Positions 1 through 5,980 of a DNA stretch of 5,980 bases are shown here, in pieces. The notes below the pieces were generated by a model. It was not told the DNA's origin. It worked only from the letters and a program-made list of their open reading frames with translations, and searched no databases. The position numbers and the translations under genes were made by a program. Numbering within the stretch: position 1 is the first letter of the stretch; each line of letters begins with the position of its first letter. This stretch comes from Nitrososphaerota archaeon (lineage in GTDB: Archaea; Thermoproteota; Nitrososphaeria_A; Caldarchaeales; Calditenuaceae): positions 539-6,518 of the forward strand of contig JAVYLC010000003.1 in the NCBI GenBank assembly GCA_038741355.1, written 5' to 3'.

Positions 1-1028
1 GCTCAGAACGGGCTTGGATATAAAAAGATTTGGAAGACGTTGAGAGAGAATGGGGTTCGGGTAGCTAAGTCGACCGTCGGGTACTACTACTATAAGTTGT
101 TCTCAGAGAGGGTGGGGAAGAGAGGCCCACACCTAGACAGAGCTGTTAGGATTAGACTTTACAGCGAGGTCAAGAGGCTACGGAATAAGGGCTATTCATA
201 CAGCATGATCATAGATGAGGTGAAGGAGAGGTACGGTGTCAGATTAAGTAGGTCAGAGGTCAGTGAGTGGTTAAGAGGAATTCGTAAACCATTAAATGAA
301 ATACGGATACCATCGATTGACTACCTAGAACCGTCACCGGACCTAGCCTATTTTATAGGTGTTGTTGGCGATGGATGCGTAATCAGAAAAAGCACGTACA
401 GCACATGGGGTGGAGGATATAAGGTCGTAGCCTGCGTCAAGGATGGAGAGTTTGCCGAAGAGTTCGCGAGGTGTTTGGGAAGAGTTCTCGGAAGGGAGCC
501 ACCAAAGCCAACGCAAACAAGGGGTGGATTCTTTGGGTACGTGTTGCCTCAAAGACCCTCTACAACCTACTCAAAAAACCAATTAACGTTGATGATACAA
601 GACGTTTCACGGAGCATTGTAGGTATTGTGTGCAGAGCTTTCTACGAGGATTCTTCGACAGTGAAGGCTCCGTAAAAACATGCAGTGCAATCTATTGTTA
701 CAACACAGACATTAAAATTCTCAAATATGTTCAGAGACTTCTAAAACTCTTGGAGATAGAGTCCATAGGACCACGTCTACACGCAAAGAAGGGGACTCCC
801 TCCAAATTATGCGTAGCAAAGAATGATGTATACCACCTCTACGTTGGGGGTGCTAGTAGGCTGAAGTTCTATGAGCACGCCGGATTCACGATACAGAGGA
901 AAAAACAGCGCCTCGGAGAATATCTTACACGTCACGGACTACTTAGGGACAAGCCGCCTAAAACCCCCCTAAATCCTTTCCCTCTACCCACAATCACCGT
1001 GAAAACTAATGAAAAAAGGAGAACATAG
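1..1028 (+). pseudogene. HTH + double-motif LAGLIDADG (I-DmoI-like) endonuclease gene, copy 1. The 5' end lies outside the window and a 1-nt frameshift sits near 535-537.
   Basis: Frame 1 is open from nt 1 (AQNGLGYKKIWKTLRENG...) and aligns with residues from about 55 onward of the 4679-5938 ORF. Motif 1 is LAYFIGVVGDG. Frame 1 reads ...RGGFFGY and then diverges from copy 2. Frame 3 from 537 (VRVASKTLYNLL...FLRGFFDSEGSV...GFTIQRKKQ) resumes the alignment. Codon alignment with copy 2 (ggt ggg ttg ctc gaa gta cgc) shows one base missing in 'ttt gg- gta cgt'. The stop is tag at 1026-1028. Confidence 0.8.
1002..1017 (-). terminator. Possible oligo-T terminator for the aspS/small-ORF transcript
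   Basis: The minus strand reads CCTTTTTTCATTAGTTTTC. The T6 run is at 1012-1017, starting 13 nt past the TAG of the 76-aa ORF. The tract lies inside the last codons of the convergent LAGLIDADG copy 1. Confidence 0.3.
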
Positions 1029-1260: not shown

Positions 1261-2579
1261 GGCACGAGCCTGAACCTATCCCTCGGGAAGAGTATTACGT
1301 CCCTTATGTTGGTACGCCTTGTGATGACCATTATCAGCCTCTCGAACCCGAGCCCCCAGCCTGCGTGGACAGGCATGCCATAATCATATACCGCCACATG
1401 GTGTTTGAAGCTCTCGGAGTTGAGCCCTTGCTCCTGCAGCCTCTGCCTGAGAAGCACGGGATCTGATATCCTCGTCCCACCTGAAGCCAGTTCGAGCCAC
1501 TGGTACATCAGGTCGAAGGACTCAGATACCTGTGGGTTGCTGGGGTCGGGCTGGATGTAGAAGGGCTTTATGGCGGTTGGGAAGTGGGTGATGAAGTAGA
1601 AACCCGTGTGCCTCTTGGCCAGATATCTCAGTTCTGGGGTCTCCAGATCGCCTCCCCAGCTCTTTGGATGACCAAGCTCCACAAGCTCTCTCAAGGCCTC
1701 GTCATAAGTCATCCGCTTGAAAGGAGTCTTGGGGGGTCGGAGAGAGACGCCGAGGAGCTCGAGCTCCCTCTGCCTCTCCTCTAAGACCCTCTTGAAGACG
1801 TGGGCAACCATCTCCTCAAGCACCCGCATGACACCTTCATAGTTCATGAAGGCAGCCTCTATGTCGACAGAAGTGAACTCGCTGACGTGTCTCCGCGTAT
1901 GCGAGGCCTCAGCCCTGAAGAATGGCCCAATCTCAAAGACTCGTTCAAAGACAGTGACAAGCTCTTCCTTGTAGAGCTGAGGACTCTGGGCAAGATACGC
2001 TTCCTTCCCGAAGTAGTCCACCTTGAAGAGGGCCGCCCCACCCTCAGTCGCGGTGGCTATGATCTTAGGAGTCCTAACCTCCACAAACCCCTGCCCACGG
2101 AGATACTCGCGTATAGCGTCGAAGACCGTGTCAGCTATAAGGAAGATCGCGGTATTCACTGGTTTTCTCAGGTCTAGTATCCTATGGTTAAGACGCGTTG
2201 TCATGGACGCTGAGACTTTGCCGGTCACGTCATAGGGGAGCTTCTCAACCGCCTTGGCAACAACCTCAATCCGCTCACCCCTCACCTCAACACCCATCCT
2301 TGACTGAGGAGCAACGCGCACAGTCCCCCAGACCCTAACAGCCGATTCACGGGTCAAACCATCTAGAGCAGCTAGAAGACCGCTCTCAGCACCTACGCGG
2401 CTAAACACAACTTGGCAGAGACCCGACCTATCCCTCAAAACTATGAAGACCAAAGAGCCGAGGTCGCGTATCTCATGGACCCAGCCCTGAATGACCACAC
2501 GCCGGCCGTCAAGTTCAGGCCTAACCATCCCAGAGCGCACTTGGTCAAAACCGGCCTCGGGCTCCTCATCTCCAGCCAT
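1257..2579 (-). CDS. aspS: Aspartyl-tRNA synthetase, archaeal type (class IIb)
   Basis: An OB-fold N-terminus (VVIQGWVHEIRDLGSLVFIVLRD) is followed by class II signatures: FVEVRTPKIIATATEGGAALF, QSPQLYKE, FRAEASHTRRHVSEF, GMPVHAGWGLGFERLIMV and ILFPRDRFRLVP. It is collinear with the Thermococcus/Pyrococcus AspRS as I recall it. I prefer the ATG at 2579 (MAGDEE...) because the GTG at 2612 abuts the TATA-like box at 2615-2622. Confidence 0.93.
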   Translation of the reverse strand: MAGDEEPEAGFDQVRSGMVRPELDGRRVVIQGWVHEIRDLGSLVFIVLRDRSGLCQVVFSRVGAESGLLAALDGLTRESAVRVWGTVRVAPQSRMGVEVRGERIEVVAKAVEKLPYDVTGKVSASMTTRLNHRILDLRKPVNTAIFLIADTVFDAIREYLRGQGFVEVRTPKIIATATEGGAALFKVDYFGKEAYLAQSPQLYKEELVTVFERVFEIGPFFRAEASHTRRHVSEFTSVDIEAAFMNYEGVMRVLEEMVAHVFKRVLEERQRELELLGVSLRPPKTPFKRMTYDEALRELVELGHPKSWGGDLETPELRYLAKRHTGFYFITHFPTAIKPFYIQPDPSNPQVSESFDLMYQWLELASGGTRISDPVLLRQRLQEQGLNSESFKHHVAVYDYGMPVHAGWGLGFERLIMVITRRTNIRDVILFPRDRFRLVP

Positions 2580-3591: not shown

Positions 3592-4362
3592 TCAGAGCAT
3601 GTCGGCGATGGGGTTAACGTGGAGTGCCAGCTGGTTGAGTATTTTGAAGGCCTCAGCATACTTGTAGCCAGCTCTCCTACCTAATATCTCGTCATACTTG
3701 ATGAGGAGTTCAACTATATCAGGAGTGAATTGGGACCTGTGGGCCGACATGGCCTCCTTTTTAACATCTATCAGGTCTGAGATATCGACGTATAGGTTCG
3801 GGTTCTTGGTCCAATAGTAGGCGATGTACTTGGGTGAATGGGGCTCGAGGCCCTTTTCGAGGTCTTCACGGTTGATGTTCGTTAGGTTGCTGAAAAAGAA
3901 GGCCTCGCTGGCTGCGAGTCCAGTTGCTATGTGGTCTGGGTGGGCCTCATAGGGTAGCCATGGATCGACTGTCAAGACGACGTCGGGCCTGTAGCGCCTT
4001 ATCAGGGTTATCAGCTTGTTCCTGAGCTCCAATGAGGGTCTAAGCTCTGAATCCCTATAATCAAGCCAGATGAGTTCTGAGACACCTAGGATCTGGGCCG
4101 CAGCCTGCTGCTCCTTCCTGCGAATACGCGTCAGCTCCTCCCACGATATCGAGGGATCTGTAGTTCCACCACCACCATCAGTCACCGTCACATATATGAC
4201 CCTACACCCACGGTAAGAGAGTCTAGCAACTATGCCGCCGGCGCCTATATCAGTATCATCCGGATGGGGCTGAATGGATAATATCGTTCTGCATTCTTCA
4301 AAAGCCTTCTCAGGCTTCAAACCAATTAACTCCCTGACAACCTCAACCTCTGAAGACTCCAT
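3592..4362 (-). CDS. PIG-L/LmbE-family N-acetylglucosaminyl deacetylase, resembling archaeal diacetylchitobiose deacetylase (Dac)
   Basis: The family signature is QPHPDDTDIGAGG...VIYVTVTDGGGGT...RRKEQQAAAQILGV...DYRDSEL...DPWLPYEAHPDHIATG...YVDISDL...HRSQF. These blocks are collinear with the Pyrococcus/Thermococcus Dac sequence as I recall it. The track's start at 4371 is a TTG, and I prefer ATG 4362 (MESSEVEVV). Confidence 0.85.
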   Translation of the reverse strand: MESSEVEVVRELIGLKPEKAFEECRTILSIQPHPDDTDIGAGGIVARLSYRGCRVIYVTVTDGGGGTTDPSISWEELTRIRRKEQQAAAQILGVSELIWLDYRDSELRPSLELRNKLITLIRRYRPDVVLTVDPWLPYEAHPDHIATGLAASEAFFFSNLTNINREDLEKGLEPHSPKYIAYYWTKNPNLYVDISDLIDVKKEAMSAHRSQFTPDIVELLIKYDEILGRRAGYKYAEAFKILNQLALHVNPIADML

Positions 4363-4390
4363 AGTGTTCAACGATCATAGGGCGTTGGTG

Positions 4391-4397
4391 TTTTTAA
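4391..4397 (-). promoter_or_regulatory. TATA-like box for the deacetylase gene
   Basis: The minus strand reads CTCTTAAAAACACC. Its centre is about 32 nt upstream of ATG 4362, which implies a near-leaderless mRNA. Confidence 0.4.
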
Positions 4398-4408
4398 GAG
4401 TTAAGAGT

Positions 4409-4468
4409 GTGGACCGGCCGGATTCGAGCCGGCGACCTCCCTCACATGTCTTGGGGCTGGGATGAGGT
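4409..4468 (-). tRNA. Orphan tRNA 3' half: anticodon-arm 3' strand, variable loop, T-arm and acceptor 3' strand. A possible anticodon arm plus short intron lies upstream. No 5' acceptor strand or D-arm was found.
   Basis: The minus strand at 4443-4409 reads GAGGG AGGTC GCCGG CTCGAAT CCGGC CGGTCCA C. This has the same 5+5+5+7+5+7+1 geometry as positions 39-73 of the tRNA-Val in this window. One reading upstream is ACCTC AT-CCC-A [GCCCCAAGACATG] T, which is a Gly(CCC)-like loop with a 13-nt intron at 37/38. The complement of the acceptor strand (TGGACCG, or GTGGACC) occurs nowhere between 4445 and 4680. Confidence 0.55.
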
Positions 4469-4652
4469 CTCAACCCCCACCTCTTCAGACCACTCTTCCC
4501 CATAATCCTCCCCCTCAAACCCCTCCTAGGACTCCTCAAGCTAGTAATGGAATTCTTTCCACCCGCTCATTGAATAGTGCCCCAACCGCCGCAGATTTAA
4601 GGCCATGTCAGAAGTCTTAGGCCTAGGTTATTTTCGCCGAGGTGTCTGAGAG

Positions 4653-4660
4653 AATAAGTA
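4653..4660 (+). promoter_or_regulatory. Weak TATA-like box upstream of LAGLIDADG copy 2
   Basis: AATAAGTA is centred about 22 nt upstream of ATG 4679. A GAGGAGG at 4670-4676 could serve as a Shine-Dalgarno-like (SD-like) element. An in-frame taa at 4655-4657 bounds the ORF. Confidence 0.25.
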
Positions 4661-4678
4661 TCGCACGTAGAGGAGGAT

Positions 4679-5938
4679 ATGCTAGTTTTGGGTGGGGAAG
4701 CCTGGGTTTGTTGGGATGGGTCTAGGCCCAGCAATCCCGGAAAGGCCGGGCTGCAGGGGGAGGGTTTGCCCAAGACTCAGCGACGATTAACACCGGAGGA
4801 GAGGTGTAGACTCTTAGAGGCCCTGAGGATTGGAGTGGAGAGGGGATACGGATACGTCAAGATTTGGAGGATGCTGAGGGAGCGTGGGGTGGATGTGTCA
4901 AGGAGGGCCGTTGAGTACTGGTATCGTAAGTGTTTTCCGGAGAAGGTTAGAAGAGGGGGAGAATACCTACCCAGAGAACTACGGATTAAGTTGTATGAGA
5001 AGGTGTTAGAGCTAAGAAAGGCAGGCCTTGGATACAAGAGAGTAAGTAAGAAGATTAAAGAGCTGTATGGTGTCGCGCTGAGCCCTGCAGTGATTGTTGG
5101 ATGGTGCCGGGGAGTACACACACCATACAACGGTATAAGGATCCCCACGATAGACTTCCTAAAACCATCCCCGAAGCTAGCCTACATAATAGGTGTGGTC
5201 GCCGGGGATGGTTGGGCGGTCAAAAATAGGCGGGAAAGTGGAGGCTATAAGGTTGGTGTCAAGGTGAGGGACATGGATTTCGTAGAGGAGTTCGCGAGAT
5301 GCTTGGGGAGGGTCCTTAGGAGAGAGCCGCCGAAGCCAATATCAGTAAAAGGTGGGTTGCTCGAAGTACGCGTCCAGTCAAAGGCATTGTACCAGCTTTT
5401 ACAGAAACCCATAGACTTTGAGAGGATAGGACGGTTCGTAGAGCACTGCGAAGACTGCAAACGAGGCTTTCTGAGAGGGTTCTTTGATAGTGAGGGTTCT
5501 GTGAATAAAAGAGATGGAGGAATTTATTGCGTCAATACAGATGTCAGACTTCTCGAATACGTCCAGAAATTACTAAGAGCTCTAGGTATTGAGACATCGG
5601 GGCCGAGAATCAATATGAGGAAGGGGGCTGCCCATAAAAGGTGGGGAAGAATAATCATGGCGAGAAAAGATGTATACTGCGTTGAAGTCAGGGCGAAGGA
5701 CAGACTGGAATTCTACAGACGCGTAGGGTTCACCATAAAGCGAAAACAACAAAACCTCGAAGAATACCTCAGAAGACGCGGACTACTAGAGGACAAATCA
5801 CCTAACCAACCATCCCCCACTTATCTCTCAACCCCCCTCACACTGATGATGAAATTGGGGCCGGTGGGAATTGAACCCACGACCTCCGCCGTCTCCCCCT
5901 ACGACCACCGCCGTGTGAGGGCGGCGTCATACCGCTAG
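4679..5938 (+). CDS. Free-standing HTH + double-motif LAGLIDADG (I-DmoI-like) endonuclease, copy 2 (419 aa, intact)
   Basis: The N-terminal region of about 150 aa holds two HTH-like repeats (GYGYVKIWRMLRERGVDVSRRAVEYWYRK and GLGYKRVSKKIKELYGVALSPAVIVGWCRG). Motif 1 is KLAYIIGVVAGDG (about 5177-5212) and motif 2 is FLRGFFDSEGSV (about 5468-5503). The acidic residues at the positions expected to be catalytic are present in both motifs. The core (LEVRVQSKALYQLL...VYCVEVRAKDRLEFYRRVGF) resembles I-DmoI as I recall it. The last 27 or so codons (5856-5938) are antisense to tRNA-Val. Confidence 0.85.
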   Translation: MLVLGGEAWVCWDGSRPSNPGKAGLQGEGLPKTQRRLTPEERCRLLEALRIGVERGYGYVKIWRMLRERGVDVSRRAVEYWYRKCFPEKVRRGGEYLPRELRIKLYEKVLELRKAGLGYKRVSKKIKELYGVALSPAVIVGWCRGVHTPYNGIRIPTIDFLKPSPKLAYIIGVVAGDGWAVKNRRESGGYKVGVKVRDMDFVEEFARCLGRVLRREPPKPISVKGGLLEVRVQSKALYQLLQKPIDFERIGRFVEHCEDCKRGFLRGFFDSEGSVNKRDGGIYCVNTDVRLLEYVQKLLRALGIETSGPRINMRKGAAHKRWGRIIMARKDVYCVEVRAKDRLEFYRRVGFTIKRKQQNLEEYLRRRGLLEDKSPNQPSPTYLSTPLTLMMKLGPVGIEPTTSAVSPYDHRRVRAASYR

Positions 5939-5949
5939 ACCACGGCCCC
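5856..5949 (-). tRNA. tRNA-Val (anticodon CAC) with a 22-nt intron at the canonical 37/38 position
   Basis: The minus strand reads GGGGCCG TG GTCT AGCGGTA TGAC G CCGCC CTCACA [CGGCGGTGGTCGTAGGGGGAGA] C GGCGG AGGTC GTGGG TTCAATT CCCAC CGGCCCC A. This folds into a full cloverleaf of 72 nt after intron removal. The anticodon is at 5917-5915. No CCA is encoded. Confidence 0.9.
5892..5913 (-). other. tRNA-Val intron (22 nt)
   Basis: The anticodon 3' strand CGGCGG occurs twice, at the intron 5' end and at the exon 2 start. Removing 5913-5892 restores a 7-nt anticodon loop CTCACAC closed by CCGCC/GGCGG. Confidence 0.75.
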
Positions 5950-5980
5950 ACTCCTCAGAACCGTATACCCGTGCTGTAAC

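Follow-up and report, generated by a model that had tools for sequence, protein, structure and literature searches.

How non-canonical introns and splitting arose in archaeal transfer RNA (tRNA) genes is a long-standing question. The mobile-element model for their origin has so far been based mainly on one locus of Caldiarchaeum subterraneum with an uncharacterised open reading frame (ORF), where a 1,868-bp insert with an 813-bp ORF, 'b', lies between a 5' fragment of tRNA-Thr(GGU) and the reconstituted tRNA-Thr (Sugahara et al. 2012, PLoS One 7:e32504; PMC3293823). This tRNA gained a new intron at the junction and also has an intron at 45/46; the element is present in multiple copies, and empty and filled alleles coexist in one population (PMC3293823). 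Sugahara et al. described ORF 'b' only as a putative DNA-binding or recombination protein and ascribed the event to a plasmid with a pNOB8-type integrase (PMC3293823). Their locus is the closest precedent for the one we analyse here, a 5,980-nucleotide (nt) stretch of archaeal DNA (the window) in which an orphan 3' piece of a tRNA borders the 5' side of a LAGLIDADG endonuclease gene, which we call copy 2, as an earlier note on this DNA had pointed out. We think it likely that a tRNA 3' exon was duplicated here and that the orphan is the spare copy, without function and in decay, at the far border of a small mobile insertion in which the LAGLIDADG gene is the only gene.

Both loci belong to Caldarchaeales and combine a one-ORF insert, a reconstituted tRNA, a tRNA-fragment repeat at the far end and an insert or intron at the junction. 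However, in Caldiarchaeum the orphan is the 5' fragment and the ORF lies on the tRNA strand, whereas the window has a 3' fragment as its orphan and an ORF that converges with the tRNA. ORF 'b' is known to us by its description, which states no family, while the window ORF is a LAGLIDADG gene with no integrase beside it. The repeated non-coding region 'a' of Caldiarchaeum has no counterpart in the window, where we found no conserved non-coding region common to the two LAGLIDADG copies. Finally, the window family differs from the Caldiarchaeum locus in that its association with tRNA genes is systematic and spans many tRNAs.

Three further systems invite comparison. SSV1- and pNOB8-type integration, like the window, targets a tRNA, reconstitutes it at one border and leaves a partial 3' repeat at the other (summarised in PMC3293823), but it involves a tyrosine recombinase and identical attachment (att) cores, whereas here there is no integrase, the repeats are non-identical, one endonuclease gene is all that the inserts of 1.5-2.2 kb encode, and the junctions hold inserts or introns. 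Free-standing homing endonuclease genes of phages, for example those of the T4 Seg proteins, with SegB in a tRNA gene cluster, are known for 'intron-less' or 'collaborative' homing; an intron at the homing target site would protect the allele that carries it. As in the window, such genes lie outside any intron or intein, beside their presumed target, and are inherited with flanking sequence. Unlike T4 Seg, the window gene belongs to an archaeal chromosomal LAGLIDADG class with transposase-like helix-turn-helix (HTH) repeats, part of its target gene is duplicated and its family sits at many tRNA genes. Split and tri-split tRNA genes occur in Nanoarchaeum equitans and Caldivirga maquilingensis, where the halves are intact and conserved and have complementary leaders and trailers that form a bulge-helix-bulge (BHB) motif. 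The orphan resembles them in being an isolated 3' portion away from its 5' portion; it differs in being damaged, lineage-specific and devoid of a detectable BHB or, within the 6.5-kb contig, of a detectable partner.

The orphan occupies window positions 4410-4440 on the minus strand and corresponds to about positions 43-73 of a tRNA, by its sequence and its homology to tRNA second exons. Read from 4440 to 4410, it consists of GGAGGTC, GCCGG (4433-4429), CTCGAAT (4428-4422), CCGGC (4421-4417), CGGTCC and A, after which come the trailer CAC (4409-4407) and then TCTTAACTC. GCCGG and CCGGC form a perfect, G+C-rich T stem of 5 bp around a near-canonical T loop; the G53-C61 pair and the T-loop consensus are present, and the sole deviation in the arm is C in place of U at position 54. 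AGGTC precedes the arm and an acceptor-like strand comes after it, of 6 nt rather than 7, with the terminal A equivalent to the discriminator. By alignment, the similarity to a tRNA 3' exon is far from chance: the orphan scored 26 against the 3' exon of tRNA-Val(GAC), compared to 7.9 ± 1.3 for shuffled sequences, none of which reached 26 in 300 trials. The tRNA 3' piece reported on the minus strand in the earlier note is thus real, as both the T arm and the shuffles indicate, but its positions 39-73 are not perfectly formed as was claimed there: tRNA homology begins only at about position 42-44 and the acceptor strand is a nucleotide short.

The orphan is not a tRNA gene. Both ARAGORN (default settings) and Rfam called a single tRNA in the window, tRNA-Val(CAC), and none at the orphan; a search of the 301-nt stretch 4380-4680 with RF00005 gave no tRNA match at E≤10, and ARAGORN with introns of up to 3 kb found nothing above noise for a full cis tRNA. 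Neither a D arm nor a usable 5' half was found in cis nearby (ARAGORN default, Rfam E≤10), which agrees with the absence of an acceptor 5' strand and D arm noted before. A heavily interrupted cis tRNA, one of the options raised at that stage, finds no support either, with no ARAGORN or covariance call at threshold and no BHB. When 96 and 196 nt were folded, the energies were no better than those of shuffles (z = +0.7 and +1.4) and no structure beyond the T arm was seen.

Among the tRNAs of the archaeal loci that we fetched (cited by L numbers), the orphan best matches exon 2 of tRNA-Val(GAC) in L130 (28/30 identical) and the 3' exons of tRNA-Pro(CGG/TGG) in L133, L139 and L143 (28/31). Compared to these exons, it carries U54C and C69U and has lost 1 nt from the CCCC run of the acceptor, where the intact counterpart of CGGTCC is CGGCCCC-A. 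The deletion and C69U (C>T in the DNA) explain the odd U1-A72 pair and C73 read from this strand in the earlier note, which are an artefact of a damaged acceptor. The trailer CAC is also the local trailer of tRNA-Val in L094 and L099 (CCCCA-CAC). When 185,579 species genomes were scanned for exact matches to the T arm and acceptor, GCCGGYTCGAATCCGGCCGGTCC, none came from Thermoproteota, and the source metagenome-assembled genome (MAG) itself was not among the matches though the pattern fits the window. The matches were mostly actinobacterial (the one checked, L002, is a tRNA-Ala), with a few tRNA-Arg and tRNA-Ile of Asgard and DPANN archaea.

The place of the orphan becomes clear from related genomes. 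The window's neighbour genes (PIG-L deacetylase, Alba, an 89-amino-acid (aa) gene, AspRS and a 76-aa gene) have their closest relatives in MAGs named Nitrososphaerota or Candidatus Calditenuaceae, of the order Caldarchaeales (the 'Aigarchaeota' group), and not in Thermoproteales, the host presumed in the earlier note. In L093-L098 (PIG-L 86% identical), UDP-glucose dehydrogenase is followed by an intron-less tRNA-Val(CAC), a 57-nt spacer and PIG-L. The same tRNA-Val lies directly upstream of PIG-L in L107 (a 79% relative), with a 200-nt spacer, and in L099 (a 73% relative) it comes after the dehydrogenase, with an alpha/beta-hydrolase gene between it and PIG-L. No LAGLIDADG gene lies between tRNA-Val and PIG-L in these three of the four lineages examined, and the orphan is not found at the orthologous place in L094, L099, L106 or L107. 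The 5' flank of the window tRNA-Val matches that of the relatives, and on the PIG-L side homology restarts at TCTTAACTCTTAAAAACA, about 3 nt beyond the orphan, and this marks the right-hand edge of the inserted DNA. This host flank, the PIG-L promoter region (4389-4406, minus strand), is 18/18 identical to L106, and L094 and L107 have a similar box. Because the flanks match the relatives on both sides, about 1.47 kb has been added between the tRNA and PIG-L.

The fourth lineage, L106, is the closest (PIG-L 90% identity; contig only 1 kb) and has a LAGLIDADG-like remnant beside PIG-L; its sequence upstream of the TCTTAACTCTTAAAAACA box differs from the window's. Positions 1-90 of L106 show an antisense-like match to the N-terminal region of the endonuclease, about 50 nt from the PIG-L promoter box. 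From its sequence, the arrangement looks like a deletion derivative of that in the window.

The only gene in the 1.47 kb between tRNA-Val and the orphan is copy 2 (4679-5938, plus strand), in which HTH-like N-terminal repeats precede a double-motif LAGLIDADG_3 domain (Pfam PF14528, E=6e-19). This is the only ORF family match within the insert, and no integrase (tyrosine recombinase) gene is present there. The catalytic motif columns G176-D177-G178 and D270/E272/G273, which are the GDG and SEG motifs, are invariant in 22 homologues, and copy 2 is a predicted LAGLIDADG homing-type endonuclease. Convergent with it, and overlapping its end, is tRNA-Val(CAC) (5855-5950, minus strand; ARAGORN; Rfam 61.3 bits). 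A 22-nt insert within this tRNA, CGGCGGTGGTCGTAGGGGGAGA (5892-5913, minus strand), is not in the orthologous tRNA-Val of L094, L099 and L107, and its first 16 nt are a near-duplicate (14/16) of the downstream CGGCGGAGGTCGTGGG, the start of the tRNA's own 3' part. Two differences separate the window from the deposited contig JBHHLC010000039.1: a C run of 6 versus 7 at 5832-5837 and an A/C substitution at 5853. The 1-nt difference in the C run shifts the copy 2 stop. In the deposited contig it is at about 5875, which gives 398 aa and an end 20 nt into the tRNA; in the window it is at 5938, and the 419-aa version reads antisense through most of tRNA-Val.

The same layout is seen at the locus of the closest copy 2 homologue, P0122 (69% identity). 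This locus, L192 (L104 is the same locus), lies in a 1.55-Mb contig and, in the direction of the tRNA, has the order AsnC, exon 1 (1-42) of tRNA-Pro(CGG), a 33-nt insert, exon 2 and the antisense endonuclease gene, beyond which are about 1 kb of non-coding DNA, an orphan GGAGGTCGCCGGTTCAAATCCGGCCGGCCCCA, about 50 nt and a hydrolase flank. The whole insert is 2.2 kb and is without an integrase or other gene. The 33-nt insert, at 42/43, has a 10-bp hairpin and was parsed manually as a relaxed BHB. Relatives L193-L196 (hydrolase 77% identical) show the empty site, with AsnC, an intact tRNA-Pro and the hydrolase and no endonuclease gene. L133 and L139 have an intron-less tRNA-Pro(CGG) whose exon 1 is the same as that of L192 and whose exon 2 agrees with the L192 orphan at 32/32 positions, versus 25/29 for exon 2 of the L192 tRNA; the orphan would fit well as the original exon 2, displaced by the insert. 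Filled and empty tRNA loci are therefore seen in two lineages, the window versus L094/L107 and L192 versus L193. The tRNA itself is tRNA-Pro(TGG) in the empty-site relatives (L193 3874-3951) and tRNA-Pro(CGG) in the filled genome (L192 2634-2744); the anticodon and anticodon stem differ and the 5' flank is homologous. The end of the L192 intron, TTGGGGAAG, resembles the end of the window's tRNA-Val insert, GGGGGAGA.

At L153, the endonuclease is only about 39% identical to window copy 2. The tRNA-Pro(CGG) there (1684-1779, minus strand) shares exon 1 with L192, differs in its T arm and has a 19-nt intron with a perfect BHB at 45/46, and the orphan upstream of this distant family member is 36/37 identical to the 3' half in L133. 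L198, in the same genome as L192, has a tRNA-Arg(CCT) (4075-4167, minus strand) 42 nt from the endonuclease stop with an 18-nt BHB intron at 45/46 (manual parsing). L198 yielded no significant orphan, the candidate GTTAGGATTGAAAATCC being no better than shuffles and dropped. The geometry of the BHB is clean in both L153 and L198. Their intron position, 45/46, is also the intron site of Caldiarchaeum tRNA-Thr(GGU). Decayed 3' copies are also present at three soil-metagenome loci with tRNA-Arg(TCG), L173, L180 and L187, where they precede the endonuclease gene (z = 3.6-6.6). The junction ahead of the orphan, ..TGTG[AGG]GAGGTC, is similar in the window, L192 and L153.

The introns of L192, L153 and L198 are non-canonical and lie in the variable-loop region. 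With default settings, ARAGORN missed the L192 tRNA, reported those of L153 and L198 as long tRNAs with no intron flag, and gave no identity for five further endonuclease-adjacent tRNAs. We rejected its 'tRNA-Gly with 890-nt intron' in L104, in which the 5' part is a chance GGGGCCG in the endonuclease ORF with poor D and anticodon arms.

The association with tRNA genes extends across the endonuclease family. Our sample comprised 80 metagenomic loci encoding copy 2 relatives and four from assemblies, 342 kb in all, and the association was counted over the 72 loci in which the sequence continues for at least 120 nt past the endonuclease match. A tRNA gene lies within 200 nt of the endonuclease 3' end in 60 of these 72 loci. 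All but one of the 60 adjacent tRNAs are on the opposite strand (convergent), mostly 1-40 nt from the stop codon; they span at least 17 tRNA identities, and BHB introns interrupt several of them at the junction (42/43 or 45/46). Beyond these 60, the 342 kb contain only 7 tRNAs. Scanning both strands with a strict T-arm pattern gave ten matches outside the ARAGORN tRNA calls, namely six tRNAs that ARAGORN had missed, three orphans like that of the window and one match taken for chance.

Six loci (L130, 936-1008; L133, 1473-1550; L139; L143; L149; L158) have tRNA-Val(GAC), tRNA-Pro(CGG) or tRNA-Pro(TGG) with an identical 3' exon, and the 20 nt after it, ATATTAGTTATTATTTTGAG, the end of the endonuclease gene, are identical as well. 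Because exon and ATATTAGTTATTATTTTGAG are shared in this way, the tRNA 3' exon is inherited together with the endonuclease gene, which suggests that the element homogenises tRNA 3' halves.

In the best-resolved cases, the tRNA on the endonuclease side is made up of the host 5' exon and a 3' exon with a short insert or BHB intron between them, and a second copy of the 3' exon lies beyond the endonuclease, beside the host flank. We propose that the endonuclease would cut a tRNA gene that has no intron, close to the variable loop or T arm, and that repair would copy the element from a filled donor, with the 5' part of the tRNA and the 3'-exon repeat as homology arms. The product would then be tRNA 5' exon, junction insert or intron, working 3' exon, endonuclease gene, spare 3' exon and host flank. 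In the window, the spare exon would later have gained U54C, C69U and the 1-nt acceptor deletion, and its GCCGG T stem could have come from a donor locus of tRNA-Val(GAC) or tRNA-Pro type, or from conversion. Copying from such a donor would explain both this T stem and the trailer CAC that matches L094 and L099.

Several observations weigh against the orphan being such a duplicate, or complicate it. The cleavage activity, the cut site and the repair pathway are all things that we infer from sequence comparison. The orphan is only 22/30 identical to the 3' half of the adjacent tRNA-Val(CAC) because its T stem is GCCGG/CCGGC rather than GTGGG/CCCAC, a type that differs from the adjacent and the orthologous tRNA-Val(CAC) genes alike. 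Due to this mismatch, a simple displacement of the local exon needs an extra step, either carriage with the element or gene conversion. An old local tRNA-Val exon is unsupported as stated, since the T-stem type is unlike that of all tRNA-Val(CAC) orthologues; between an orphan carried with the element and an old local exon, the sequences would allow roughly equal weight. Most family loci, for example L102 and L198, have no detectable orphan, so the duplicate is either not an obligatory product or quickly lost. L105 has no adjacent tRNA, and neither does the window's second LAGLIDADG gene, copy 1. For the 22-nt insert in tRNA-Val, we found only out-of-register motifs and no canonical BHB in register, so the tRNA may itself be impaired, or it may be spliced in a relaxed way. 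Lastly, the window DNA sits in a 6.5-kb contig of the MAG GCA_042137655.1, and the search for a 5' partner of the orphan was confined to that contig.

A related possibility is that the spare exon is retained because it serves the element, for instance as a portable right-hand homology arm for spread between tRNA genes with a common acceptor and T-arm sequence. Orphans of the GCCGG type do lie beside endonucleases at different tRNAs, which are Val(CAC) for the window but Pro(CGG) for L192 and L153, and the endonucleases of these two are 69% (L192) and about 39% (L153) identical to that of the window; the junction ahead of the three is similar, and the window orphan is of a type unlike its local tRNA. 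On the other hand, orphans are lacking from most loci, decay is evident in the window copy, the interior sequences are not conserved, and the L192 and L153 orphans fit the expected original exon of their own tRNA, as passive displacement would leave them. We consider a retained function unlikely.

We find it improbable that the orphan is an att-type scar of classical integration by an SSV- or pNOB8-type plasmid or virus that was mostly deleted later, with the LAGLIDADG gene as a surviving passenger. In its geometry, with an intact tRNA at one end and its 3' part directly repeated in incomplete form, the locus looks exactly like an archaeal integrase att site, and the very similar Caldiarchaeum locus was explained by an integrase (Sugahara et al. 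2012; PMC3293823). However, neither the 1.47-kb window insert nor the 2.2-kb L192 insert contains an integrase or any other gene, the window repeats are not identical, and the tRNA association tracks the LAGLIDADG gene itself, across 60 of 72 loci, the orientation being fixed and the spacing a few nucleotides. In IMG/VR (2.9 million viral contigs), the protein has only one weak relative. An integration scar had been among the readings of the earlier note, and in its geometry this largely stands, since there is an intact tRNA, a partial 3' copy, an insert of about 1.47 kb and an empty site in relatives; the integrase and the identical repeat are what is missing. Our verdict is that a LAGLIDADG element that targets tRNA genes, and not an integrase, was at work.

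That the orphan is a functional 3' half of a split, trans-spliced tRNA, with its 5' half encoded elsewhere in the genome, is very doubtful. In favour of this idea, also from the earlier note, are the intact T arm, a TATA-like TTAAAT about 150 nt upstream on the same strand, the reach of the partner search (6.5 kb of a fragmented MAG) and the view that such insertions can seed split tRNAs (Sugahara et al.; PMC3293823). Against it, the piece is damaged compared to intact homologues (an acceptor one base short, C69U and U54C), and by inspection of the sequence its acceptor strand mismatches the tRNA-Val 5' half and cannot pair with it. It is not in the four related lineages, the closest relatives L106, L107 and L094 among them, and the T arm and acceptor have no exact Thermoproteota match among the 185,579 species representatives. 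We found no BHB-capable leader, no fold signal and no ARAGORN or covariance call at threshold.

A complete cis tRNA-Gly(CCC) at 4407-4493 with an aberrant D arm, which would contain the Gly(CCC)-like anticodon arm and 13-nt intron first suggested for this region, can be dismissed almost entirely: ARAGORN proposes it, with correct overall spacing, only at an 80% threshold and as one of about ten sub-threshold calls in the window, the other nine or so plainly false, but its D stem is unformed, its best 5' acceptor strand forms 6/7 pairs with a T.T mismatch, there is no Rfam match at E≤10, the 37/38 reading of the intron is mismatched at the first pair of a 4-bp helix with no BHB (manual check; motif enumeration lists none there), and the sequence upstream of the orphan is not conserved in L192 and L153, which hold the same orphan.

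The orphan itself is, in our verdict, an ordinary by-product, a decaying insertion scar, and neither a split tRNA nor a cryptic tRNA-Gly. The interest is in the element that made it, which offers many natural replicates for a mobile-element origin of tRNA introns and fragments. It is tempting to speculate, and we do so tentatively, that the free-standing LAGLIDADG family of Nitrososphaerota (Caldarchaeales and soil Nitrososphaeria-like lineages) is a mobile element specific to tRNA genes: it would insert around positions 42-46 and keep the tRNA functional by supplying a 3' exon of its own, in some cases with a BHB intron, and the original 3' exon would be left as an orphan; the case for this general claim falls somewhat short of an even one. 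If true, the family would be a direct and still-active source of non-canonical tRNA introns, homogenised 3' halves and stray tRNA fragments, the raw material of split tRNAs, and the window orphan would be one of its by-products, possibly also the portable homology arm of the element.

Compared to what was available for the mobile-element model, these loci add a recognisable enzyme family, LAGLIDADG, as its agent, a systematic tRNA association and matched empty and filled sites at which the junction intron and the displaced 3' exon appear together. The model thereby becomes directly testable. A full-text literature search, incomplete in coverage and thus weak evidence of novelty, found no description of tRNA-associated free-standing LAGLIDADG genes in archaea. 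For annotation, orphan tRNA halves beside these endonuclease genes should not be recorded as split tRNAs.

The non-coding interior of the window insert, from the orphan to the endonuclease start codon (4444-4678, no strand), showed no significant similarity to the equivalent regions of L192 and L153 outside the orphan (z about 2.6, not convincing). We dropped a proline-rich reading of 4462-4620 (plus strand) that resembles the tail of an endonuclease, its blastx matches being weak and of low complexity (E>0.3). The interior holds a promoter-like motif, GAGGTGTCTGAGAGAATAAGTATCGCA (about 4639-4665; repeat family D5), which is common to the upstream region of copy 1. It stands as GAGGTGTCTGAGAGAATAAGTATCGCA at window 4639-4665 and as GATGTCTCAAAGGAAAGTAGTATCGCA at L001 6255-6281, some 15-40 nt upstream of both endonuclease start codons, and by this position is probably the promoter of both genes.

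Copy 1 itself (40-1028, plus strand) is a frameshifted paralogue of copy 2 in direct orientation, with about 60% nucleotide identity (blastn); it consists of overlapping ORFs at 40-675 and 471-1028, and the Pfam match is on the second. By synteny, it abuts the 76-aa gene at the place that nuoA holds in relatives, and the conserved block from PIG-L to the 76-aa gene is flanked on both sides by diverged endonuclease paralogues. Upstream of copy 1, to the left of the window start (L001 6380-6515), are three copies of CATCAGCCT, 36-42 nt apart. Their antisense, AGGCUGAUGA, is C-box-like, and the copies surround an inverted repeat, GGGCTCC...GGGAGCCC. In L192, a similar sequence, ATCAGGCTGCGGGGCTCCCGATGAGCC, precedes the endonuclease gene (4585-4630). 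From their sequence, the CATCAGCCT repeats may be a candidate small RNA or protein-binding site that belongs to the element.

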